The translations under genes and the position numbers were made by a program. Positions 1-62,938 of a stretch of DNA of 64,000 nt are shown here, in pieces. The stretch is taken from assembly GCA_963849325.1 (NCBI GenBank), contig CAWKHF010000006.1:640001-704000 (forward strand), given 5' to 3'. How positions within the stretch are numbered: position 1 is the first letter of the stretch; each line of letters starts with the position of its first letter. The notes below the pieces were generated by a model, which was not told the DNA's origin, made no database searches, and worked only from the letters and a program-made list of their open reading frames with translations. This DNA comes from an uncultured Planctomycetota bacterium. Its GTDB lineage: Bacteria > Planctomycetota > Planctomycetia > Gemmatales > Gemmataceae.

Positions 1-2400
1 CTCTCGATCAGGGCCGCGTCGAGCAGCTCTTGCACGACGACGGCTTCCTGGCCCACATGGACCGCGTCGAGGAAGCCTTCGACAACTACCTGGCCGCCCC
101 GACCTGGTATCAGGAAACCTACGCCGGCGTCGACCGCAACGGCGCCGCCGCCCCGGACCTGCGCATCGCCTATTTCAGCGCCGAATTCGGCATCCACGAG
201 AGCATCCCCGTCTACTCCGGTGGCCTGGGCGTCTTGTCGGGCGATCATCTCAAGAGCGCCAGCGACCTCGGCCTGCCGCTGGTCGGCATCGGTCTGATGT
301 ACCGCGAAGGCTACTTCCGCCAGTACCTCACGGTGGACGGCTGGCAGCAGGAGCGCTATCCCGAGAACGATTTCTTCAATCTGCCGCTCATTCCCGAGAC
401 CAACCGCGACGGCGCGCCGGCGACCATCCGCATTCCCTTCCCCGGTCGCGACGTCCACGTGCGCATCTGGCGCATCCAGGTCGGCCGCGTGCCGCTGTAT
501 CTGCTGGACACGAACATTCCGCGCAACGCGCCGGAGGACCGCGTCATCACGGCCCGGCTGTACGGCGGCGACAACGACATGCGCATCCGTCAGGAAATCG
601 TGCTGGGCATCGGCGGCGTGATGGCCCTGCGCGATGGGCAAACCGCCGACCGTCTGCCACATGAACGAGGGTCATAGTGCTTTCTGCGGTCTGGAGCGCA
701 TCCGCGCTCTGATGCAGGAGAGCAACCTGCCCTTCCACGCCGCCCGCGAGGCCGTCGCCGCCGGCACCGTCTTCACCACGCACACGCCGGTGCCGGCCGG
801 CAACGACGTCTTCGCTCCGCAGCTGATCGAGCACTATCTCGGCAGCTACCTCGGCGCCTTCAAGATCGACCGCAACGAATTCCTCGGCCTGGGCCGGCAG
901 AACCCCTTCGACCAGAACGAGCCGTTCGGCATGACCGTGCTGGCCATCCGCCTGGCCAACGTGACCAACGGCGTCAGCAAGCTGCATGGCAGCGTGTCGC
1001 GCAAGATGTGGAAAAGCATCTGGCCGGACCTGCCCGACAGCGAGGCGCCCATCACCTCGATCACCAACGGCGTCCACATGCGGAGCTGGGTGTCGCCGGA
1101 CATGATCCAGCTGTTCGACCGCTACATGGGCATGGCCTACGATGGCCGGCCCAGCGAGCAGGCCATGTGGAAGCGCGTCGAGAACATCCCCGACGCCGAG
1201 CTGTGGCGGACGCACGAGCGCCGCCGCGAACGGCTGGTGGCCTTCGCCCGCATCCGTCTCAAGCAGCAGCTGAAAAACCGCAGCGCCTTGCCGGCCGAGA
1301 TCGCTCGCGCCGACGAGGTGCTCGATCCGGACGCCTTGACCATCGGCTTCGCTCGCCGCTTCGCCACCTACAAGCGCGGCACGCTGGTCTTCCGCAACCT
1401 CGATCGCCTGGCCGCCTTGCTCAACAACAAGGAACGGCCGGTGCAGTTCCTCTTCGCCGGCAAGGCCCATCCCAAGGACCACGGCGGCAAGGAGCTGATC
1501 GCCGAGATCCTGCAGTTCGCGCGGCGGCCGGAGTTCCGCCGCCGTATCGTCTTCCTCGAAGACTACGACATCACCGTGGCCCGCTACATGGTGCAGGGCG
1601 TGGACGTGTGGTTGAACAATCCGCGCCGTCCCCTGGAAGCGTCCGGCACCAGCGGCATGAAAATCTGCTGCAACGGCGGACTGAACCTGAGTATCCTCGA
1701 TGGCTGGTGGTGCGAGGGCTACGACGGCGAGAACGGCTGGGCCATCGGCGCCGGCGAGGAGTACACCGACCTGACCTACCAGGACGACGTCGAATCGCGG
1801 GCCATTTACGATCTGCTGGAGCAGGAGATCGTGCCGCTGTTCTACAACCGTTCGTCCGATGGTCTGCCGCGTGGCTGGCTGCGGCGCATGAAGCGGGCGA
1901 TGACGACGCTGTGTCCCGTCTTCAACACTGGCCGCATGGTGGTCGAGTATTTGACGACGTGTTATCTGCCGTCGGCGCAGCGTTTCCTGCGGCTGACGTC
2001 GGACAATCTGCAGAAGGCCAACGCCCTGGCACAGTGGCGACAGGGCTTGATGCGCGGCTGGAACCAGGTAAAGGTGGAGGGTGTCGAGGTCAGCACTGCC
2101 GATCCGGTGCAAGTCGGCGGCGAACTGCCGGTCAAGGTGCGCGTCAATCTCGGCCGTTTCACGCCCGACGACATCGAGGTGCAGCTGTTCCACGGCCTGG
2201 TCGATTCGCTCGGCGACATCCCCCGGCCGCACCTGGTCAGCATGGGCCATAACGGCGCGCCCAAGCACGACAACGTGTGGGAGTTCCACGGCACCATCCC
2301 GTGCCGGTCGAGTGGTCAACACGGTTTCGCCGTGCGCGTGCTGCCGCACCACGGTGACCTGTCCAGCGCCTACGAGCCGGGGTTGGTGTGCTGGGGATGA
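1..2400 (+). CDS. glgP: Alpha-glucan (glycogen) phosphorylase, 5'-truncated by the window edge; frameshift near 634
   Basis: AYFSAEFGIHESIPVYSGGLGVL, HMNEGH, GFARRFATYKR, EASGTSGMK (PLP lysine); ORFs 30..677 and 634..2400 join. Confidence 0.95.
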
Positions 2401-2419
2401 GGTTTCGACGCGGTTTCCG

Positions 2420-2477
2420 ACCAGCCCGGAGCGCCAGCGACGGGTTATGCGAACCCGTCGCTGCGCTCCGGGCTGGT
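2420..2477. repeat. REP-like palindrome; related half copy at 6609-6633 and diverged copy at 36208-36264
   Basis: ACCAGCCCGGAGCGCCAGCGACGGGT...ACCCGTCGCTGCGCTCCGGGCTGGT. Confidence 0.85.
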
Positions 2478-2495
2478 GAGTTTGGAGGACCGCGG

Positions 2496-2885
2496 GTGAA
2501 GCCCCTCCTGCTCGTTCTCGGCGGCGGACTGGGCACCTACGTCCGCTGGTGGCTCGGCGCCTGGTTCGCGGCCCAGCCCTGGACGCGCGGACTACCCCTG
2601 GGCACCTTCGTCATCAACGTCAGCGGCTCCTTCCTTCTCGGCGCCGCGGCGGTGCTCATCCTCGAACGCTTGCCGCCGGAGCATCAGGACTGGTATTTGC
2701 TCGTCGGCACCGGCTTCTGCGGCGGTTACACGACGTTCTCGACGTTCGAGTGGGAGACGTTCAAGCTCATCCGCGACGGCAGCTGGGGTTTCGCCCTGGC
2801 CAACGTGGTCGGCAGCGTGTTGGCGGGTTTCGCGGCGGTGCTGCTGGCGGTGCTGTTGGTCCGTGCCATCCTGCCGCCGCGCTGA
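2496..2885 (+). CDS. crcB: Fluoride efflux channel CrcB/Fluc
   Basis: GGGLGTYVRW, PLGTFVINVSGSF, GFCGGYTTFSTF signature; GGAGG RBS before GTG at 2496. Confidence 0.95.
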   Translation: MKPLLLVLGGGLGTYVRWWLGAWFAAQPWTRGLPLGTFVINVSGSFLLGAAAVLILERLPPEHQDWYLLVGTGFCGGYTTFSTFEWETFKLIRDGSWGFALANVVGSVLAGFAAVLLAVLLVRAILPPR

Positions 2886-2898
2886 GGAGGCCCAGGCT

Positions 2899-3237
2899 AT
2901 GAAGATCGAGGGCGAAGCGAAACTGGTGACGGTTTACGTCAACAGCACCGATCAATGGCACGGCCGGCCCTTATACACGGCCATCGTGCAGCTATGCCAG
3001 GACCAGGGCGTCTCCGGCGCCACGGTCATGCGCTGCGTGGCCGGCTACGGCGCCCACCACCGGCTGCACACGACGCGCCTGCTGGAGTTGAGCGAGAACC
3101 TACCGGTACGCATCGAGATCGTGGACATTCCGGAGCGCATCGATCCGCTGCTCGCGGCCCTGGAAGGAATGATCGGCGAGGGACTGATGACGGTCGCGCC
3201 CATTCACATTCTGAAGTTTCTGCCCGATCCGAAATAG
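2899..3237 (+). CDS. DUF190 (PII-like) protein
   Basis: GRPLY...GVSGATVMRCVAGYG...LSENLPVRIEIVD; usual partner downstream of crcB; GAGGAGG RBS. Confidence 0.9.
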   Translation: MKIEGEAKLVTVYVNSTDQWHGRPLYTAIVQLCQDQGVSGATVMRCVAGYGAHHRLHTTRLLELSENLPVRIEIVDIPERIDPLLAALEGMIGEGLMTVAPIHILKFLPDPK

Positions 3238-3258
3238 ATCGATGGTCTCTCCAACTCC

Positions 3259-4931
3259 TCACCACTTGAAACTGTACTGCAAGTAAAACAGCGCCGGTCC
3301 TTCCTTCGGTCCACTCGTTTCCCGAATGAACGAGCCAGCGAACAGCTTGGAGTAGCCCACGAAAATGTCCTGATGCAGGCTGAGATGGAAATTGGTGGTG
3401 AAGTCGATCTCATCACCCACGAAGGTTCCCGCCTGGCCGGTCGGGTCGCGGCGGATGACGGCGCCGCTGGCGTTGTACAAGGCGTCGCGGGCGCTGTCGA
3501 GGTGGAAGACGTGGTACTGGAGCGTGGTCTGAATCCACTTCGCCGGGTAAAAACCGAACTGCATACTCACGTCGTCGATGTTCTGGCGGCCGACCAGGTC
3601 GAGATAGCCGAAGTAGGTGTGGCCCCAGGGGAACAACTGGTTGAACGTGCCGTGGATGTCGCCGCTCCCCGGATTTGGGTCGCCGGAGGCCCAATCGTTG
3701 TAGACCCAGAACTGCGGATTCAGCGGCAGGTGAGCGAGCTGGTAGCCCACGCCGGTCGTGACCGCACCGGCCGAGATGGCCTGGTTGGACCAGGCGCCGA
3801 ACTGATACATGCCCTCGAAGTCCCACAGGAACTGGCGGTAATCGCCGGAATAGCGACTGCCGAGGGTGCTGACGTTGTAGCCGCCCAGGACGCCGCCGCG
3901 CCCGCTGGCGACGCCGGGATTGCGATTGTCCAGGTCCAGGTAGTACAGATCGATGGCCTGCCCCTTGCGCGGCCGCTGTGTCAGCCACAGTCCGGTGAAG
4001 TTCTGATTGTGGTCGGGAGGGTCGAGACTGGTTGGACGCATGAGCACTGGCTGCACCCAGAAGGCGTCCACGTTCCAGTCCTTGCCCAACCAGAAGGCGC
4101 GGCGCCCTGGAAGGTGCGGCGCACGTTGGGAAAGTCCGAGGGCGAGATTAGCCGCTGCGAGCCGAAGTACATCTCCTGCCGGCCGACACGGACGTAGGCC
4201 GGCTGCTGGTTCACGGCGAACAGTTTGGCATCCGCGAACAGATTTTGGATGTCGGCGTGGTTAACGTCATTGGGCAGCGGCGGCAGGTCGTTGTTGGCGA
4301 TGCGCGAGTCCTGCATCTCGGCATAGACGCGAAAGCGGTCGAGATACCACACGTCCGTGTAGACGCGCGAACGGATCAACTCATACGTGTTAACCTGGCC
4401 GGTGAAGCGGGCATACCCGCCGTTCTCGTCCATGTAACGGACGCGCTCTTCGCCGCCGAGAGATAGCAGCCAGTCCTCGCCGGCGTGGATGCGCTTGAGA
4501 GGCGAGAAGAAATCAACCTGGCCGAAGGCCGGGCTTTCCAGATAGCGGTAGTCGGCGTCATAGAAGGAGTAGCCGTCGCCGCTGACCGGCGGATACGGCG
4601 TCTTCAGCGGCTTGGCGAGCGGTTCATCCAGGAGCAGGAACAGAAGCGAGTAGTAACCTGGTCCGGTCGGTAGGACCAGAAAGTAGCCGATGCGATCCAT
4701 CGGCCGCAGCGGCGGCACTCGTGCCCAGAACTTCACCGCCTTCTCTTGCGGCGCCTTAATGGATTCTTTTTGGAGAGGAGCAGGCGCCGGCGTGGCGGGC
4801 GTCACTGCCGCGGCGGCGGGCGTCCTTTCCGGGACGGGCTGTCCCCGCGCCGCGTTCATCGCGGCGAGGAAGAGTCCGGCCAGCAGTCCGGCTCGAACCG
4901 ACCTCCAGACGGTGTGGATGGTCCGACGCAT
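3259..4931 (-). CDS. Alginate-export-family outer-membrane beta-barrel; frameshift near 4095
   Basis: Signal peptide, RVGRQEMYFGSQRLIS, ASGD, TFNQLFPWGHTYFG, C-terminal YLQYSFKW; ORFs 3981..4955 and 3259..4089 join; GAGGTG RBS. Confidence 0.85.
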
Positions 4932-4962
4932 TTCACCTCGGCTCGATCTTCCCACGATTGGG

Positions 4963-4994
4963 AAAACAAAAAACCCCCGCCGAGTGGCGGGGGT
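4963..4994 (-). terminator. Intrinsic terminator in the leader (riboswitch expression platform)
   Basis: Minus strand ACCCCCGCC-ACUC-GGCGGGGGU followed by UUUUUGUUUU, just upstream of the porin start codon. Confidence 0.85.
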
Positions 4995-5028
4995 AAGTGC
5001 GTGGAACCCCTACCGCCGAGCCGGCGCG

Positions 5029-5083
5029 GTAGGAGTCATCAGCCCTGCAAGACAGGGCGGTTGTCTGGGGGGACTCCATCCCC
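5029..5083 (-). ncRNA. Fluoride riboswitch aptamer (crcB motif)
   Basis: Minus strand GGGGAUGGAGUCCCCCCAGACAACCGCCCUG-UCUUG-CAGGGCUGAUGACUCCUAC: P1 GGGG/CCCC, GAUGGAGU loop, P2 GCCCUG/CAGGGC, UGAUGACUCCUAC 3' end with GGAGUC/GACUCC pseudoknot. Confidence 0.92.
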
Positions 5084-5212
5084 TCTTCTGTGTTTCACGA
5101 TCTTGGCAGGCAGCAACGTCAAGAAGCTATCCCTCTCTATCGGCGGCGACGCTTCTAAACTTTGGAGCGAGCGGACAAAAAACCGCGGAGCCGGAAGCGT
5201 AAGACTTTTTCT

Positions 5213-5557
5213 TCACCCGGGCGGCCAACCGAGGTCGCGGCCACCGAGCAGGTGCAGATGGAGGTGCGGCACCGTCTGGCCGGCGCGCTCCTTGCAATTG
5301 AGCACCAGGCGATAGCCGTCGCTGATGCCGAGCTTGTCCGCCAGCTGCGCCGCCACCAGATGCAAGTGGCCGAGCAGCTCGCGGTCCTCCGGCTTGACGT
5401 CGGCGTGCGTCGGAATCACCTTGCGCGGGATGAGGAGCACGTGTACGGGGGCTTGCGGGTTGATGTCGTGAAAGGCCAGGCAGTGCTCGTCCTCGTACAC
5501 GATGCGGGCCGGGATTTTCTTTTCGGCGATCTTCAAAAAAAGGTTGTCCTGGAGCAT
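5213..5557 (-). CDS. hinT: HIT-family nucleotide-binding protein
   Basis: AFHDINPQAPVHVLLIP, AGQTVPHLHLHLLGGR, ends WPPG. Confidence 0.92.
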   Translation of the reverse strand: MLQDNLFLKIAEKKIPARIVYEDEHCLAFHDINPQAPVHVLLIPRKVIPTHADVKPEDRELLGHLHLVAAQLADKLGISDGYRLVLNCKERAGQTVPHLHLHLLGGRDLGWPPG

Positions 5558-5644
5558 GAAGGGACCTCCTGGTTCAAAGGGGGCTTTCGCGTACCATAGC
5601 CGTTATCCTCGCGGCGATCAACCGTCCAACGGGGGAAGGCCGTC

Positions 5645-6606
5645 ATGGCGTGGATCATCGGCATCGACGAAGCGGGCTACGGACCGAACCTCGGCCCGTT
5701 CGTCATGACCTCCGTTGCCTGCCGCGTGCCGGACCCCTGCCACGATACGAACCTGTGGCGCCTGCTCCGTCCGGTGGTCCGCCAGGGCGCCGACGCCGAC
5801 GATGGCCGACTGCTCATCGATGACTCGAAGATCGTCTACACCGCGCGCGGCCTGGCCGGCCTGGAACGCGGCGTCTGGGCCGCCCTGGGACGCGCCGGAG
5901 AGGCCCGGTGTCTACTCTCGCGGCGCTGCTGGAATGGGTCTGTCCCGACGACCGGGAGGAGTTGGGCCGCGAGGTGTGGTATCGGGGAGTGCAAGCGGTG
6001 CCGGTCCACCTGGAAGCCGCCGAGCTAGGGCCGTGGGCCTCTCGCTTCGACGAGGTCTGTGCGGCCGTGGGCGTCGGTGGCTGGCAGGTCCGCGGCGCGA
6101 TCGTCTGTCCGTCGCGCTTCAACGCGCTCCTCGACGAGGGCGGCAAGAAAGGGGCCGTGCTGGCCCACGCCCTGACGCGGTTGCTGCGCTGGCAGCGCCA
6201 CCGACTGATCGGCGAAGACGCCCTGACCTTCTTCATCGACAAGCACGGCGGCCGCAACACTTACGCGGCGATGCTCCAGCACGCCCTGCCCGATGGCGTG
6301 GTTCTCACCGGCGAGGAGGGCATGGCTCGCAGCAGCTACCGCGTCCACGGCCTGGGCCGCGAGGTACGGCTGACGTTCCAGCCGCGCGCCGACCGCGAGC
6401 ATTTCTGCGTCGCCCTGGCGTCGATGGTCAGCAAGTACCTGCGCGAGGTGCTGATGCTGGAGTTCAATCGATTCTGGCGGGAGCACGTGCCCGACCTGAA
6501 GCCGACGGCGGGCTACCCCGGCGACGCCGCCCGCTTTCTGGGCGTCATCCGTCCAGCCATCGAGAAACTGGGGCTGCGCGAGGAGGTCTTGTGGCGCCGC
6601 AAGTGA
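5645..6606 (+). CDS. RNase HII-fold protein; frameshift near 5900
   Basis: IIGIDEAGYGPNLGP, DDSK, VALASMVSKYLRE, GYP. Confidence 0.8.
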
Positions 6607-24952: not shown

Positions 24953-27900
24953 CTAACGGACGGACTCCCTCAGTCGTTCGTCCCTGGATGCCCTGACCCT
25001 GCGGCCAATCGCGGGGACCAACAGCGCCAGCACCACGCCGAGGGCGAAACCGGCGAGCGGCGCCTGCGGCAAGCGACCGACGCCGATCTTCGCCAGCAAG
25101 TAACCCAGCAGTCCGCCCGCCAGTCCGCCCAGCACCGCCGAGCCGATCCAGCGCGTCGCCGCCCCCGTCAGCAGTCGCGTCGCGCCGAGCCAGGCGATGA
25201 CGTAGAAGAAGACCGGCGTCAGGAAAATGCCGAACAGCGTCACACCCAACATGCCGCTGAAGACCGCCGTGCCCAGCGAGCGGCGCATCTCGGCGCCGGC
25301 ACCGGTGGCGATCACCAGCGGCAGCACGCCGAGAATGAAGGCGAACGACGTCATCAGGATCGGCCGCAGACGCAGCCGGCACGCCTCGACCGTCGCCTCG
25401 TAGCGCGGCTTGCCCTCGCGGTGCAATTGCTGGGCGAACTCGACGATGAGGATCGAATTCTTGCACGCCAGGCCGACCAGCACCACCAGGCCGATCTGCA
25501 CGAAGATGTCCACGGCCTTGTGCGTGAACAGCACGCCGGCGACAGAGCAGAGCAAGCACAGCGGCACCACCAAAATGACGGCCAGCGGCAGCGCCCAGCT
25601 CTCGTACAGTGCCGCCAGGGCCAAAAAGACGAACACCACGGCCAGGGCGAAGACGTACATCGCCGTGTTGCCCGCCCGAATTTGCATGAACATCAGCTCG
25701 GTCCACTCCGCCTTCATGGAGCGCGGCAAGCTCTGACGGGCCGTCTCATCGACGGAAGCGATGACCGGCCCGGTGCTGACGCCCGGCCGGATGTTGCCGG
25801 TGATCGGGGCGGCGGTGTAGAGGTTGTAGCGCATGACCATGACGGGACCGCTCACGTCGCGCACGTTGACCAGCGTGCCCAGCGGCACCATCTGTCCCCA
25901 CTTGTTGCGGACTTCCAGCAGGTTGATGTCCTCGACGCGGCGGCGGTACGGCCCCTCGGCCTGGATGGTCACCTGCCAGTAACGGCCAAATACGTTGAAG
26001 CTGTTGACGTAGAGCGAGCCGAGGTACATCTGCAACGTCTGGTTGAGACGTTCAGCGATACGCCGAGCGATTCGACCTTGGTGCGGTCGATGTCCAGGTA
26101 CAGCTGCGGCGTATTGGAACGAAACTGCGTCGCCACGCCGAGCAGGTTGCGATCGAGCGCAGACCGGACGGATGCGGATGCGGCGGCAGCTTGCCGATCA
26201 GCTTCTCGGTCTGCTTCTGCAAGTTGGGCAGTCCCAGGCCGCCGCGGTCCTCGACCATGAGTTTGAAGCCGCCAGCGACGCTGAGTCCGGGGATCGGCGG
26301 GGCGCCGAACACCGTGATCCGCGCATCCTTGACCTGGCGGGCCCACTCGCGCCGCAGGCGGGCCATGATCGCCTCGTCGCGGAGATCGGGGCTTCGCCGC
26401 TTCTCGAACGGGTCGAGGATGACGAACAGCGAGCCGAAATTGGAGCTGTTGGCCGACAGTAAAAACGATAGTCCCGAGACGGTGACGGTGTGGGCCACGC
26501 CCTTGCGTCTGCAGACGTAATTCGCTCGACCAGGGCCACTATCTCCTGAGTGCGCTGCAAGCGAGGCCGAGTCGGGCAATTCGACGTTGACGATGAGCCG
26601 GCCCTGGTCCTGCTGGGGAATGAAGCCGGTGGGAGCGCGGTCGAAGACCCAGTACGTCAGCACCAGAAGGCCGACGTAGGCCGCCAGGACGAGGATGCTG
26701 AGGCGAAGCAGACGACCCACCGACCAGGCGTAGGCCGCCGTGCCGGCGCGAAACGCCGCGTTGAACAGTCCGAACAACCAGCCGAGCGTCATGTCCAGCA
26801 GCCAGGTCAACGGATCGCGCCGGCCGCCGCGCGGCTTGAGCAGGATGGCCGCCAGGGCCGGACTCAACGTCAGCGAATTGAACGCCGAGAAGACCGTGGA
26901 AACGGCGATGGTGACGGCGAACTGGCGGAAGAACTGCCCGGTAATGCCGCGGATGAAGGCACACGGCACGAACACGGCGCACAACACCAGAGCGACGGCG
27001 ATGACCGGCCCCGTCACCTCGTCCATCGCCCGCCGCGCCGCCTCGCGCGGCGGCAAGCCGTGCTCCAGCCAGCGCTCGACGTTCTCCACGACAACGATCG
27101 CGTCATCGACGACAATGCCAATGGCAAGGACGAGGCCGAATAGTGAGATGTTGTTGAGGCTGAAGCCCAGCGCCGCCATGACGGCGAAGGTGCCGACGAT
27201 GGCGACGGGCACGGCGAGCAGTGGGATCAGCGATGCCCGCCAGTTCTGCAAGAACAGCAGCACGACGATGGCGACCAGTACCACCGCCTCCAGCAGCGTC
27301 CGTACCACGTCCATGACCGATTCGCGGACGAACGGCGTGATGTCGTAAGCGATGGCGTAGTCCACGCCATCAGGGAAGCGCGTCTTCAATTCCTCCATCT
27401 TCTGCCGCACGCCGTCGGCCACGTCCAGGGCGTTCGTGCCGGGGAGCTGGTAGACGGCCAGGCCCACGGTCGGTTTGCCGTCGAAGGTGCTGGCCTGGTT
27501 GTAATTCTGAGCGCCCATCTCGACGTGGGCCACGTCGCGCAGGCGGACGAGGCTGGCCGACGTCCCCGGCGGGAGGCCGAGCGCCGCCGCCCGCGCCGCC
27601 CTGCATGACGCCGCCCATCGCGCTGCCACTCGACATGCCGTTACCCGTGGACGAACTACTGCCGGTCATCCCACTGGCGGTCGTACCGCCGATCGTGGCG
27701 CCTCCGACGCTGCCGGCGCCGGTCATGCTGTCGCTGGTCGTGCTGCTGTTGATCGTGCTGCCGGTGGTACTGCTGCCGGTAGTGGTACTCCCCGCGTTCA
27801 TGCCTCCGCTGGTCGTGCTGCTTCCCGTCGTGCTGCCGCCGGTCATGGTGCCGCTGCTCATGCCGGCGCCGGTCATGCTGCCGCCGCTACTGGTGGCACC

Positions 27901-28803
27901 GCCCATCATTCCTCCGCCCGTCATGCCGAGACCGGCCAGCGTGCCGGTGAGGCCGCGACTGCTTTGGCTGCTTTGCGGAGGCGACGTTAGCACGACGGGA
28001 GGCGGGGCCACGGAGCCGGACGGGGCGCCGCGGCCGCGCTTGATGATGATGTCGGCGAACTGCTCCGGCTCGCGGAGTCGGCCCAGCGCATCCAGGGGCA
28101 TTTGGAAGTGCTGGCCGCGGCCGGCGGGCGGCTGGCCGACCTGACCGGCGGGCGCCTCGACGTTCTGGCTGCGGATGGCCGCCGCCACCTCCAGCGGTGT
28201 CAGGTCGCACGCCGCCAGCTTTTGCGGGTCCAGCCAGGCGCGGATACTGTAGTCGCGCTCGCCGAGGATGTTGATGTCCGAGACGCCGGAGACCCGAAAC
28301 AACTCGTCGCGGACGTTGATGTAGGCGTAGTTGCTCAGGTAAATGTCGTCGTAGCGATTGTCCGGCGAGAAGAAATTGACGACACACAAGATGTCCGGCG
28401 TCTTCTTTTTGATGGTGATGCCCTGGCTCTGGACCTCGACGGGCAGCTGCGGCATGGCCAGGGTGACACGGTTCTGCACCATGACCAGCGCCGTGTTCAG
28501 GTCGATGTCGAGATCGAAGGTGACGGTCAACGTGTACGAGCCGTCGTTGCCGCACTGCGACGACATGTACAACATGCCGGGCACGCCGTTGACCTGCTGT
28601 TCAATCGGCGCCGCTACCGTGTCGGCCACCACCTGCGAATTGGCTCCGGGGTAGCGGATGGACACCGACACCCCCGGCGGCGTGATGCGCGGATACTGCG
28701 CGACCGGCAGCGAACCCAGCGCGATCACGCCGGTCAGGGTGATGACCACGGACAGTACCGTGGCGAAGATTGGCCGGTCGATGAAGAAGTGCGAAATCAT
28801 CAA
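24953..28803 (-). CDS. RND efflux permease (AcrB/MexF type) with a long low-complexity insertion; several frameshifts
   Basis: SHFFIDRPIFA, LAIGIVVDDAIVVVENVER, KNSILIVEFA, RLRPILMTSFAF. Confidence 0.92.
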
Positions 28804-28809
28804 CGACCC

Positions 28810-39326: not shown

Positions 39327-43357
<4,031 letters not shown>

Positions 43358-43721
43358 GGCGTGCCATCTTCCGCCCGGGCGCCCGGCCGCTCACGGAACG
43401 AAGAGGTGTACCCCTCACGAGGAAACGGAGGGCCGGGGCAGTGCCTGACGTCCCGGATTGCTCCTGGAGCTTACACCCCGCCGGACAGGGACGCAACCGA
43501 AAAGCCCGCGGAGAAGAAGGGAGGGGACCGCGACCGTTCCCTGGCGTCGAGAAAAGAACGATGCTGTCACCCGGACTTCACGAAAATAGGTGACATCCTG
43601 CGCGGTGATACGACCTCGGCAAGAAAGGAAGGTCGTCCGAGCCTGAAGCGTGAGCGAAGAGTACGACAACCTTCGGTTGTCGTACTCTTCGCTCACGCTT
43701 CTCGGACAAGTGCGAGGAAGA

Positions 43722-55963: not shown

Positions 55964-57371
55964 TCAGGACAGTAATCCAGGGATCGGCTCCCAGCCCGTC
56001 ATCGTCTGGGCGATCTCGCGCGGCGCCCGGGCACCAGGCGCAGCTCGCCGACGTCGAACAGCGTGTGCAGGATCGTGGCGATCAGGTTCTGGATGCGGAC
56101 GGGCTCGGACTGCGGCTCGCCGGCGTGGCGGTCGGACTGGCCGATGACCTGCCCCATCTTCAGGCCGCCGCCGGCCAGCAGCAGCGGGCCGAGGTTGCCC
56201 CAGTGGTCGCGGCCGCCGTTCTTGTTGATGCGTCGGCGTCCGGCCCATCTCGCCGCAGACGACCAGCAGGATTTGCTCGCTCAGGCCGCGCGCCTCGACG
56301 TCTTCGAGGAACGCCGACACGGCATGGTCGAGCGGCCGGCCCATGTAGCGCATGCCCTCGGCGACGCCGGCGTTGTTGACGTCGGCGTGCATGTCCCAGA
56401 CGAAATTCGTCGTCACGGTCACGAAGCCGCAGCCGCGCTCGCACAGCCGGCGGGCCAGCAGCAGCAGCTTGCCCAGCGACTTGGCGTTATCGACGTAGTT
56501 GTTGTAGTTCTTCCACTTCTTGTCGATGTTCTCGGGCCGGACCAGCGGCGCGGTGTCGTAGCGCGCGACGGTGCGCGGATCCTCCTTGGTCAGGTCGAAG
56601 GCGTCGGCGACGCCGCCGAGGATGGTCTCGAACGCCTGCTGCGCGCACGCGGTCCATGCCCTCGAAGCGCGCCCGCCTCGGCGAGCGTCCAGCTGCACGC
56701 GGTCGAGCTCGGCCAGCAGCCGGCGGCGGTCGTCCAGGCGCGTCGAGCGGGACAGTCAGGTGCATGTCTTGCTGCAGTCTGCCGCCGCCGCTGGGATCGA
56801 ACGGAGCGTAGGCGGCGCCGAACGGCCCGGTATCGCCGAACTTGCCGAAGGTCATCGGTGCCCGGCTGCGTGCTGGGGTCGACGGCGCGCGGGAACAGGA
56901 GCCACGTTGGTCGGCATGCCGGTGCCGGCGTGGTTGGTCGCCGGCCATGCGGGCGTAGACGGAGCCGAGGTTGGCGCCGAAGGTGTCGCGGCCGACGACC
57001 GGCTTGATGTCGTGGTTGCCGTCGCCGGGGACGAACGAGCGCACCACGGTCGAGCTTGTCGGCCAGGGCGGCCAGCCGCGGGAAGGTGCCGCCGAAGGTG
57101 ACGCCGGGCAGCCGCGTGGCGACCTCGCCGGTGGCGCTGCGGATGCTCGGCCGGGGCGCGACATCTTGGGGTCGAACGTCTCGATCTGGCTGGGGCCGCC
57201 GTGCAGGAAGAGGAAGATGACGGACTTGCCGGTGACAAGTTGTTTGTCACTGGCCGCCCGCGCCTGCGCGGCGAACAGGTCCGCCAGCGACAGGCCGCCC
57301 AGGGCCAGGCCGCCGACCGTGAGAAAGGCCCGGCGGTCGAAACGGCGTCCACCGTCGTGGATGGTGAGCAT
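55964..57371 (-). CDS. DUF1501 protein; many frameshifts
   Basis: DRRAFL, GGPSQIETFDPK, LLARRL, WDMH, GEMGRTP. Confidence 0.88.
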
Positions 57372-57496
57372 CAACGTTCCCCTTGCTCGCTATGTCCGCG
57401 TTCATCAGGGCGAGGTTGGTCCGATCCGGTGCGAACTTCAGGGTAACACGGCGAGCCCGAAGAAACCAGCATTCCATGCCTCGGACCATCCTTCAA

Positions 57497-58964
57497 TCAT
57501 TCGAGGCCGTGGAGCAAGTCGTTCAGATCCTGCGGTAGTACATCGTGACGGCGGAGGACTTCGCGCCTCGTCTCTCCCAACCGGGGAGCTATGCCGACAC
57601 ATTCGATCCTCCAAGAGGTAAATTTCTCGAACGTGTCCAAGAACCGCTGAACGTGCCCTTTGAAATTATTGACGTCCGAGAGCAAGGGACCGGGAGACCG
57701 TTTGCAAGAGCCGAACCGGATCACGCGATCTTTCGTGTTGACGGCCACCAGGTCAATCTCCGTGTCCTTGCGGTCCCAGTATCCGGTGATGCGTGCGGTC
57801 AGAGGAAAATCGCCCAGGCTTTTGCGGCTCCGCTCCTCGTACAATTCCCCAACCAGTTTCTCCAAGGCATGTCCCTCGATCTCCGCCAACCGGCTGTCGG
57901 CCTCGGCGACCAGTTGCTCAAGCGGGCGAAATTCCCGAGCGGCTACCGGGTTGGCGAGCGCCGCCAGCCAGGCTTGCAAAAAGTTGTCGGTCAGATAGTA
58001 ACGGCCACGCCGTTCCTTCTCCTTGGCGAACACGGGTAGCTTTCGCTCGATCAAGCGATAGCGTTCGGTCAACGTCTTGAGATAGCCGCCGACTTGATCG
58101 GTATTATCGCCGCTTGCCTCGCGGATGGCGTTCACCAGTGCCTTGTGCGTCTTGCCCGGATGGCGGGCCACGAACTTGAGGACGACATCGTATCGGCCGC
58201 GCAGTTCCCGAAGGAACCAGTTCTCGGCCTCGGTGCGGAGGGGGGAAGAGCTTTCAAAGAAGATACGGCGGAGCAACGTCGGACGATCCGGCGCCGAGTA
58301 CCTGTTGCTCATAGCAATCGCGGTAGAACTTTGGCACCCCTTCAAACAGGGTCCAAAGGAACAGCAACCTCTCTGGGGAAGGCTCCGCGTGCTCGCCGAG
58401 GATCGCCCGCACCGAGCCGATGTCCAGGTGCGTCAGTTCCAGGGCGTCCGTAACGCGGTTGTACAGGGGAGCCGAGCGATCCTCCAACAGCGCGGCCATC
58501 TCCGTATGGATCGATCCCAGGACGATTAAACCGCCCTTCATGCGCTTGGCGTCGGCCGCCAGCCGATCTACCGCCGCTTGAAGCAAGGAGCAAAATTCGG
58601 TGAAGGTCTTTCGATTGAAATACTGGAATTCGTCGAGGATCACGACATAACCCGCTCGTGCCATCGCCTCGATCAGTTTGGCAAGGTCGGCCAGCGTGCG
58701 CGGGCGCGGAAACCGCTCCGCAGGCACCTGGAACGTGTCCAGCGCATCACAGACCGCGGACAGAACGCCGGCATCTCCGGAATCGGGAACCTGGACGTAA
58801 TAGACGGGATGAGGTTGCGAGAGAGGGAGGGCATTATTGACCAGTGTCGTCTTACCGATCCGTCGTCGTCCCGTGATCTTGACAAAAAACCAACGCTTGC
58901 GCTCCAGGATGGAACTCAGCTGCCGCAGTTCCCACTGACGTCCGTAGAATCGCCATTCCGTCAT
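57497..58964 (-). CDS. Archaeal-type ATPase (ATPase_2, wHTH, DUF234-like C-terminus); frameshift near 58295
   Basis: FYGRQWEL, GRRRIGKT, ILDEFQ, GVPKFY, DNFLQAW, YWDRKDTEIDLVA. Confidence 0.85.
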
Positions 58965-58997
58965 AGCCACCTGTCTCAAGGACGTGTGCCGCGAAAT

Positions 58998-59044
58998 TAA
59001 GATAATACCGCTTTACCTAATTTAGGTAATGTCGTTTTATCTTA
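58998..59044. promoter_or_regulatory. Symmetric AT-rich operator upstream of the ATPase gene
   Basis: TAAGATAA-N7-TTACCTAA-T-TTAGGTAA-N7-TTATCTTA. Confidence 0.6.
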
Positions 59045-59106
59045 CAAGGGGCTTGCTCGGAAGTCCTTGTATCGAAAGGCAATCAAGGCAGACGAAAAGT
59101 TGAAGC

Positions 59107-60534
<1,428 letters not shown>

Positions 60535-60587
60535 ATGATTCGGTCGGGAGAGAGGGGAGAGGATCATAATACCTTCACAAGAACCTG

Positions 60588-60674
60588 AACCACGGATTAC
60601 ACGGATAACACGGATAAAGAAAGAGAATGATCCGTCTGTCTTCTTTATCCGTGTTATCCGTGTAATCCGTGGTT
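60588..60674. repeat. Palindromic repeat (ACCACGGAT family), copy 3
   Basis: AACCACGGATTACACGGATAACACGGATAAAGAA...TTCTTTATCCGTGTTATCCGTGTAATCCGTGGTT. Confidence 0.9.
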
Positions 60675-60687
60675 GAAATAGGGGACT

Positions 60688-62938
60688 TCATTCCACGTCG
60701 AGGAACTCCGCGGAATTCAGCAACGCATGACAGAAATCCACCACGGCGGCGGCAAACGCCGCGTCGATACCGACGGGGTTTGGCTCCGGCAGGGCGCCGC
60801 GGCCCGGCCCGCCGTCGGACGCGATCAAGTGCGCCTGCCGTCGCAGAAACGTCTCGGCCGACGCCGTCTCGTCCGGCGCCCGGCTCGCGTCCGAAGGTCC
60901 GCAGGTAGGCGGCACGGACCAGCCGGTGAGCGTCCGGACCCTGCGCCGTCAGCAGGTCGCCGCCGAGGTGACGCGCCTGCGCCAGCGTGAACTCGCCGTT
61001 GAGCATGGCCAGCGATTGCGGCGCCGTGATCGTCGTCGCCCGAACCGGACAGCTATTCACGCGGTCGGGCTGGTCGAAGGCGGCGAAGAGCGGATAGGCG
61101 AAGTTGCGCTTGGCCAGCACGTAGATCGAGCGGCGGTTACGGTCCTGCGGTCGTTCGTCCGGGGTCCCAGGCGTAGCCGCTCTCCAGCACGGACGCCGGC
61201 AGCTCCGGGCAGTTGCTCGGCCCGTACATGCGCCGGTTGAGCTGGCCGGACGCTTGCAGCACGGCGTCGCGGATGGACTCCGCATCGCGGCGCTTGACGC
61301 GGGCGTGCCAGAGCAGCTTGTCGTCGGGATCGACCCGGATCGCCGTCCCGACCGTGGGGTTGCGGGCCGGCGACGACGCCTGCCGATACGTGGCCGAGGT
61401 GACGATCAGCCGGTGCAGCGGCTTGAGCCTCCAGCCCTGGCGCACCAGCTCCGTCGCCAGGTAGTCGAGCAGTTCGGGATGCGTCGGCTTCTCGCCCATG
61501 GCGCCGAAGTCGTTGGGCGTGGCCACGATGCCGACGCCGAGGTGATGCTGCCACAGGCGGTTGACGACGACACGGCTGGTCAGCGGATGGTCGGGCCGGC
61601 ACAGCCAGCGGGCCAGGTCCGCGCGGCGGAATAAGGTGTCCGGAACCTTTTTCTCGTCGCAGCACTCCGGGAAGCCTGCCTGCACGCGCTCGCGCGGCTT
61701 CTGGTAGTTGCCGGTCGCCCAGCCGATACGTCGCCGGCGGCTCGCCCTCGAGGTTCATCACACCCATCGCCACCGGCAGCGGGGCCGGCTTGATCGCGTC
61801 CAAGGCGGCGATCTTCTTCTGCAAATCGTCGTAGACGCGCGCTGTTCCTTCGACAACCGGCGGTGCGCTCGGCCCAGCCGGCGATCGACCTGCTTGCCGG
61901 CCAGGACCGCCAACTGACGTTGCAACGGCGTCCGCTTCCGGGCCGGCGTCGTCAGCGCCTGCCGCGTCTCGGCGTCGAAGGTGGCCAGCAGTTCCGCGAA
62001 AATCGCCTGGCGCGGGGCCACGAGCATGACCTCGCACCGATCCCGCAACGGCCGCGTCGCTTCCTCCCACTTCGAGAGCTGTTGTTGATAGCGGGCCCGC
62101 TCCGGCGCCGGCGCCAGCACCAGGTCGTCCCGATGCACCAGCGGCGCGAAGAAGGCTTGGAGACGATAGTAATCGCTCTGCGGAATCGGATCGAACTTGT
62201 GGTCGTGACAGCGGGCGCAACCCATCGTCAGACCGAGGAAGGTGACGCCGAACACGTCGGTGACGTCGTCGAGGATGTCCTGACGGACGGAACGGTAATT
62301 CGAGGCGTTGGTTTCCTCAGGGTGCAGACGATAGAAGCCGGTGGCGATGAGGGCGTCGGGATTGTCCGGCTCCAGCTCGTCGCCGGCGATCTGCTGGCCC
62401 AGGAAGCGATCGTAGGGCAGGTCGTCGTTGCAGACGCGGATGACGTAATCGCGGTAACGGTAGGCTTCCGGCCGCAGCTTATCGAGCTTGAAGCCCTCGG
62501 TTTCGGCATAGCGGACCACGTCGAGCCAGTGCTGCGCCCAACGTTCGCCGAAGTGGGGCGAGCGGAGCAGGCCATCGACCAGCCGCTCGTAGGCGTCGGG
62601 AGAGTCGTCGGCGAGGAAGGCGTTGCGCTCGGCCGGCGTCGGCATCAGGCCGGTCAGGTCGAAGGTGACGCGGCGAAGGAGGGTGAGCTTGTCGGCCGGC
62701 GGATTGGGCCGCAGCCCCGCCTTCTCCAGCCGGGCCAGCACGAAGGTATCGAGAGGGTTTCGCACCCAGCTCTTGAGCCGCACCTCGGGGAGAGAAGTAC
62801 GTTGCGGCGGGTCAAAGGGCCACTCGGGCGCGAGGACTCCTCCACGCCACGGCTGGGCGCGACGAATAGACCCAGGAGCAACAGAGGAATCAGACGACTC
62901 AACCAGCGACGTCGGGGGCGAACCCGGCAGCGGATCAT
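60688..62938 (-). CDS. DUF1549/DUF1553 (PSD1) planctomycete protein; frameshifts
   Basis: [54 protein letters not shown]. Confidence 0.92.

Follow-up and report, generated by a model that had tools for sequence, protein, structure and literature searches.

Introduction

The window considered here is a 64-kb stretch of the genome of an uncultured planctomycete of the family Gemmataceae (8.16 Mb in 14 contigs), and its subject is a fluoride riboswitch on the minus strand that leads into a gene for an outer-membrane β-barrel of the Alginate_exp family. The 3′ end of the barrel gene meets crcB, the gene for the Fluc fluoride channel, and a DUF190 gene, both on the plus strand (Table 1). Canonical members of the fluoride regulon are crcB/Fluc, CLC-F, Na+/H+ antiporters, pyrophosphatase, enolase, and others, and the portions available of a 2024 review name exporters, Na+/H+ antiporters, pyrophosphatase, HAD enzymes, enolase, formate hydrogen lyase, and chorismate mutase (PMC11139923). 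The window locus shares with this regulon the aptamer class and the predicted ON-switch logic with a terminator, whereas the controlled gene encodes an outer-membrane β-barrel instead of an inner-membrane transporter or a cytoplasmic enzyme. In the same portions of that account, fluoride resistance is framed through inner-membrane exporters and cytoplasmic adjustments, and the crossing of the outer membrane is left unaddressed (PMC11139923).

Table 1. Features of the locus in order along the window (nucleotide positions; bit scores refer to the Pfam profile named).
Feature	Position	Strand	Basis
crcB (Fluc fluoride channel)	2496..2885	+	PF02537, 101.5 bits (cut-off 32.9)
DUF190 gene (PII-like fold family)	2899..3237	+	PF02641, 119.3 bits; ATG 2899
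Alginate_exp (PF13372) outer-membrane β-barrel gene, in two frames	3259..4931	-	Pfam on both pieces
Intrinsic terminator with U-tract	4962..4994 (stem 4994-4973)	-	Hairpin scan and predicted minimum-free-energy fold
Switch hairpin	5005..5037	-	Minimum-free-energy leader folds, coordinates from dot-bracket
Fluoride riboswitch aptamer (RF01734)	5023..5092	-	Full-length covariance-model match
HIT-family gene, upstream of the riboswitch	5213..5557	-	PF01230, 96.7 bits

The Riboswitch and Its Leader

The aptamer, drawn at 5029-5083 in a preliminary description of the locus, is confirmed with slightly wider limits by the Rfam covariance model (55.3 bits against a gathering score of 34; E 1.3e-12; model positions 1-64 of 64) and is the sole Rfam match above gathering score that cmscan returns for the whole window. 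A covariance model of our own (R1), built from 36 planctomycete aptamers, gives it 63.7 bits, and no second fluoride riboswitch was detected in the genome. Directly 3′ of the aptamer, a hairpin scan reveals a terminator-like hairpin of nine pairs, eight of them G-C, with a loop of four nucleotides, followed by the tail TTTTTTGTTTT. In the ligand-free fold of minimum free energy (MFE), the 3′ tail of the aptamer, CUCCUACCGC, is predicted to pair with the downstream segment GCGGUAGGGG, and a pairing of this kind between tail and downstream segment occurs in the MFE folds of all eight leaders that carry the switch. In the window, the segment GGCGGUAGGGG has an alternative predicted partner in the terminator's 5′ arm, CCCCCGCC; in simulated nascent folds, this pairing emerges once the aptamer is masked and the transcript ends short of the terminator's 3′ arm. 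Judged from predicted folds, the leader thus holds an expression platform able to switch, and its assignment to the usual ON type ahead of the barrel gene is strongly supported by the sequence. Without fluoride, the aptamer tail would pair with the downstream segment and the terminator would form; with fluoride, the tail would be held within the aptamer, and the freed downstream segment would capture the terminator's 5′ arm, so that transcription would reach the barrel gene. By eye, a terminator hairpin with a U-tract is seen in the folds of the window leader and of one further leader (L027), and in the remaining six of the eight the end hairpin overlaps a purine-rich stretch ahead of the start codon, which suggests translational control in those six. 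A sigma-70 promoter scan of 2300-5700 returned no sites, and such a scan is uninformative for this phylum.

Conservation of the Riboswitch-Barrel Pairing

Homologous loci have been collected in two samples, i.e., a protein-centred sample of 36 loci from species-representative genomes (33 with 300 nt or more ahead of the projected start) and a metagenome sample of 79 loci (58 assessable for an upstream switch). All 36 genome loci with relatives of the barrel belong to Planctomycetota. According to the Rfam model, a same-strand fluoride riboswitch lies just upstream at five of these 36 (L025, L026, L027, L028, and L030, of which the first three are the loci of genomes G005, G001, and G253, respectively), and our own model finds a strong match (63-69 bits) just upstream of the barrel gene at 6 of the 79 metagenome loci, each of the six being confirmed by the Rfam model. 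The tree built from these proteins has 62 rows; fragments and broken sequences (L054, L114, L115, L116, L118, and L120), all metagenome loci below about 40% identity, and the second Alginate_exp gene of the window's own genome (L002) stand outside it. All 12 switched rows, which represent eight distinct proteins (window, L091, L092, L025/L089, L026/L090/L096, L028, L030/L093, and L027), fall within one clade of 15 rows (Shimodaira-Hasegawa-like approximate likelihood-ratio support, SH-aLRT, 96), and no row of the tree outside this clade carries a switch.

The switched proteins diverge to about 48% identity, and their eight aptamers share an invariant core, with paired changes in the P1 and P3 stems. 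Within the clade, L100 has no upstream sequence. No weak riboswitch remnant was found in the unswitched relatives L034, L040, L045, and L036, or in L105, L100, L114, L094, and L101. It is thus strongly supported that the pairing has persisted while one barrel clade diverged in Gemmataceae-type planctomycetes. From these sequences its history looks like one gain, with long retention and a few losses thereafter, a pattern that speaks for a functional link between fluoride and the barrel protein. No Alginate_exp gene besides the switched one was found in G001 or G005, and G002, G003, and G010 have one Alginate_exp gene each, away from any riboswitch match.

The Barrel Gene and the Fold of Its Product

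In the assembly, the barrel gene is read as two open reading frames (ORFs) on the minus strand, of which ORF 3981-4955 matches positions 3-135 of the PF13372 profile (93.8 bits) and ORF 3259-4089 matches positions 134-386 (203.8 bits); together they span positions 3-386 of 395, above the curated cut-off, and intact homologues score 296-300 bits against the same profile. Alignment with the intact homologues indicates that the two ORFs are one gene, interrupted by a one-base frame break in a GC run at 4096-4106, after ...RRTFQGA, where the assembly is one base short of an open frame. The preliminary description was right that the aptamer leads into a gene of this family with an AlgE-like product, and it had overlooked the break. 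The likely start, read from the sequence, is the ATG at 4931-4929, with GAGG at 4939-4936; the N-terminus resembles a signal peptide and the C-terminus (...YSFKW) is as in outer-membrane barrels, both as read by eye and not by a predictor.

The fold has been modelled by AlphaFold2 for the intact homologue of G005 (68% identity with the window protein) from 113 aligned sequences, with a mean predicted local distance difference test score (pLDDT) of 86.9 and a predicted template-modelling score (pTM) of 0.83. The model contains 18 strands of at least five residues, and its top structural match is AlgE of Pseudomonas aeruginosa (PDB 3RBH, 4AFK, and 5D5D), with which it shares the PF13372 family and the 18-stranded, monomer-type barrel fold (Foldseek E 2e-17; VIA-align Z 30.5, root-mean-square deviation 2.6 Å over 345 residues, model residues 164-564). 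The OprD/Occ channels are next best (Z about 25) and OprP/OprO are weak matches (TM 0.37-0.39); these Pseudomonas channels are of different families from the barrel. Identity to AlgE is only about 13%, and a PDB sequence search with the family profile gave no AlgE match at E ≤ 1, only a chance match. The barrel differs further from AlgE by its riboswitch control and by some 90 additional conserved residues on the N-terminal side (about 70-160; pLDDT mostly 80-95), which in the G005 model lie outside the AlgE match. The assignment of the barrel as a secreted outer-membrane protein with an 18-stranded AlgE fold is strongly supported.

Targets of Fluoride Riboswitches in Planctomycetes

Among 61 related genomes, 14 contain a fluoride riboswitch match, with 19 matches in all. 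Three of the 19 precede an Alginate_exp gene (own genome, G001, and G005, all of one genus); the others precede crcB (4), HlyD-type fusion proteins (3), dynamin-like GTPases (2), Cytidylate_kin2 (2), and, once each, an Na+/H+ exchanger, a Usp gene, a DUF190 fusion, and a gene of no family, and one has no downstream sequence. An even, phylum-wide sample of 151 genomes provided 22 above-cut-off matches outside the own genome, which lie ahead of Na+/H+ exchangers (7), crcB (6), dynamin-like GTPases (4), CLC (2), and genes of no Pfam family (3), and the common targets in this phylum are crcB, Na+/H+ exchangers, and CLC. A family-wide sample, likewise of 151 genomes, provided 46 above-cut-off matches including that of the window, and crcB lies within about 1.5 kb of 17 of them. 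In G003 and G010, two genomes of the same genus as the window, a fluoride riboswitch heads resistance-nodulation-division (RND) efflux operons in which a TolC-like outer-membrane factor (OEP) is also encoded; outer-membrane parts therefore recur in the fluoride regulon of this genus. These operons resemble the window locus in that the switch heads genes with an outer-membrane component, and they differ from it in their tripartite pump architecture, the window barrel being stand-alone.

The statement of the preliminary description that the barrel family is not a standard target of this riboswitch agrees with the literature consulted. In the portions available, the words "porin" and "outer membrane" occur nowhere in PMC11139923 or in Weinberg 2010 (PMC2864571), and no outer-membrane barrel target is mentioned in Weinberg 2010 or in a 2020 review (PMC7266159). 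No publication was found that ties a fluoride riboswitch to alginate export or AlgE, the tables of Baker et al. 2012 and supplements not being covered, and publications that name fluoride riboswitch, outer membrane, and porin together appear unrelated to such a pairing.

The crcB-DUF190 Neighbor and the Flanking Genes

The crcB product, 129 aa from a likely GTG at 2496, matches the Fluc profile and has the size of a Fluc channel (about 120-130 aa), and the DUF190 protein has, in addition to its own family match, a weak P-II match below the P-II cut-off. Both genes converge on the barrel gene, and 21 nt separate the DUF190 stop (3237) from the barrel stop (3259), close to the 20 nt or so given earlier; this arrangement leaves the barrel gene without a downstream partner on the same strand. 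As first described, the aptamer is not upstream of crcB, and a search with R1 with filters off revealed no riboswitch remnant upstream of the window crcB, the best other match reaching 4 bits. A genome search found crcB in single copy, and hence the sole crcB and the sole riboswitch of this genome flank one barrel gene; that the only crcB and the only riboswitch-controlled gene should be direct neighbors among several thousand genes is unlikely by chance.

The surroundings of the barrel gene are otherwise variable. The HIT gene is a non-conserved neighbor, the upstream genes differing in G001 and G005, and the barrel gene as a whole is flanked differently in these two genomes. Pfam matches to 91 neighboring ORFs at 26 loci revealed no conserved partner gene.

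Interpretation and Alternatives

We consider it fairly probable that the barrel is a fluoride-induced outer-membrane pore, with the exit of fluoride or other anions as the leading guess only. Rising cytoplasmic fluoride would cause the barrel to be made and would thereby alter traffic across the outer membrane; the barrel would offer fluoride, or other small anions, a way out of the periplasm following export by Fluc, and the crcB neighbor in this genome would fit such a role. The stronger proposal, that the clade represents a dedicated outer-membrane exit channel for fluoride or small anions, is tentative and in our estimation rather doubtful; if true, the clade would supply the step at the second membrane that is missing from bacterial fluoride export, and the riboswitch would mark its proteins. 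OprP and OprO are dedicated anion-selective outer-membrane channels induced by a specific stress, so that such a channel is possible, and they are under protein regulators. The riboswitch is a direct and ligand-specific label, and the barrel clade, which keeps this label through deep divergence, is a well-defined candidate outer-membrane component of the response to fluoride; the pairing brings an outer-membrane barrel into the fluoride regulon and provides a first functional handle on the planctomycete Alginate_exp porins. Together with the TolC-type operons under the same switch in the same genus, it suggests that envelope-level handling of fluoride may be broader than thought.

Several observations weigh against the fluoride-induced pore. 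In folding calculations, the terminator is the stable equilibrium fold in both states, including that with the aptamer masked, and antitermination must therefore be kinetic, i.e., decided during transcription. Two members of the switched clade, L034 and L105, have upstream sequence and no riboswitch. The barrel is a rare target among fluoride riboswitches, since an Alginate_exp gene lies behind none of the 22 in the phylum-wide sample and behind one of the 45 others in the family-wide sample (the G253 locus, L027). Hidden Markov model searches of six-frame ORFs within 4 kb on either side detected neither crcB nor DUF190 at any of the 36 homologous genome loci. The pore of AlgE is electropositive, whereas a rough strand-phase count on the model assigns 11 K and R, 3 H, and 18 D and E to the 117 lumen residues; with acidic residues exceeding basic ones, this count does not clearly show the electropositive, anion-conducting pore that had been expected. 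Switched proteins and unswitched relatives are told apart by only seven positions, none of which alters charge, and the barrel sequence appears to hold no signature of fluoride selectivity. Finally, this strain may truly carry the frame break.

The main rival to fluoride exit is a porin that carries some other solute and is switched on by fluoride so as to ease a secondary consequence of the stress, for example through the uptake of phosphate or Mg2+/Ca2+ or through a general rise in outer-membrane permeability; we regard it as possible, though on the doubtful side. The acidic excess in the rough lumen estimate and the mere seven positions that set the switched proteins apart are in its favor, as are the varied contexts of the unswitched relatives, two of which lie beside Porin_O_P genes, and the tie between fluoride resistance and phosphate and pH homeostasis stated in the available text of PMC11139923. 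Against this porin, no conserved neighbor indicates a particular solute, and the barrel gene abuts the only crcB of the genome. That the barrel instead exports an acidic polysaccharide like AlgE, fluoride inducing a protective matrix, is suggested by its Pfam family and its fold and is nevertheless highly improbable: the Pfam names of the 91 ORFs at 26 loci include no polysaccharide-synthesis partner, synthase-dependent system, or alginate gene (family names were read, and no targeted search was made), the neighbors in the window being HIT, crcB, and DUF190. The low identity to AlgE, the lack of an AlgE match by the family profile, and the missing same-strand partner downstream count against it further.

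Two other readings concern this genome in particular. The preliminary description had proposed a dedicated two-membrane system in which barrel and Fluc co-evolved for fluoride export with DUF190 as the regulator, and the close convergent stops and the flanking of one barrel gene by the sole crcB and the sole riboswitch speak for it. Among the homologues, however, only the riboswitch part of the association recurs: crcB linkage is seen at 0 of 36 loci, and in the carriers G001, G005, and G253 crcB is on a contig apart from the barrel gene. The adjacency is therefore a local arrangement of this genome and not a conserved system. Moreover, the window crcB has no riboswitch of its own, crcB followed by DUF190 is commonly seen in this family with or without a barrel nearby, and a role of DUF190 as regulator of the porin is not supported; we consider the two-membrane system unlikely. 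The other reading takes the barrel gene for a true pseudogene and the riboswitch for a leftover, as the one-base break and a like break in L027, from a long-read metagenome-assembled genome (MAG) of few contigs at the same place as G253, would suggest. Yet the break is the only one in ~1.67 kb, with no other stops and strong scores for both pieces, the aptamer and terminator are intact, and homologues from short-read, many-contig MAGs are intact. At least four further genes of the window are likewise split or incomplete: an AcrB-type gene is spread over three consecutive ORFs that overlap (profile 1-250, 248-705, and 734-1020), a glucan phosphorylase in two ORFs, and the DUF1501 and PSD1 genes cover only part of their profiles. 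So many split genes point to frequent indel errors in the assembly, whose completeness is 84.7% despite its 14 contigs. Because other window genes are split likewise and the many-contig homologues are intact, the barrel break is most probably an assembly indel, and a pseudogene is quite improbable. The fluoride-induced pore remains our preferred reading of the locus.

Additional Observations

Genes that are frame-split or cover their profiles in part are numerous at 24956-28809 (-), 3-2397 (+), 39330-43390 (-), and 55967-61754 (-) of the window, and a hybrid histidine kinase is also among them. The genome contains two Alginate_exp genes in total; the second (L002; G000:C6:402933-404042) has one in-frame TGA within its match. 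Sigma-54 activator genes occur near 5 of 26 Alginate_exp loci (L025, L029, L036, L040, and L046), and unswitched relatives of the barrel may be under the control of enhancer-binding proteins. Porin_O_P genes adjoin the Alginate_exp gene at L032 and L039.

Regarding the efflux operons, that of G003 (L168; G003:C110:12700-20205) encodes an HlyD-type fusion protein, an AcrB-type pump of 1272 aa with a C-terminal AAA_assoc_C domain, and a TolC-like OEP, and that of G010 (L169; G010:C164:3500-11800) encodes a fusion protein followed by an OEP; L170 (G001:C360:23500-27842) is grouped with these riboswitch-led operons of the same genus. Dynamin-like GTPase genes stand directly behind fluoride riboswitches at L011, L020, L066, L069, L086, and L087. 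Cytidylate_kin2-family proteins of about 390-425 aa are encoded behind fluoride riboswitches at L016 and L021 (G005:C118), and on G005:C118 a crcB fragment comes next, at the contig end. At L015 (G028:C34:34178-34287), a 110-nt riboswitch match with a long insert is followed by a gene for a 367-aa protein with two DUF190 stretches. Tandem fluoride riboswitches with about 50 nt between them are found at G210:C5:77808-77874 and 77927-77992 (-). A cyclic di-AMP riboswitch (RF00379, about 61 bits) stands back-to-back with the fluoride switch at L026:3388-3543 (-), and likewise in L090 and L096 (1388-1543, -); this element faces a 774-aa SPFH/Band_7 gene.

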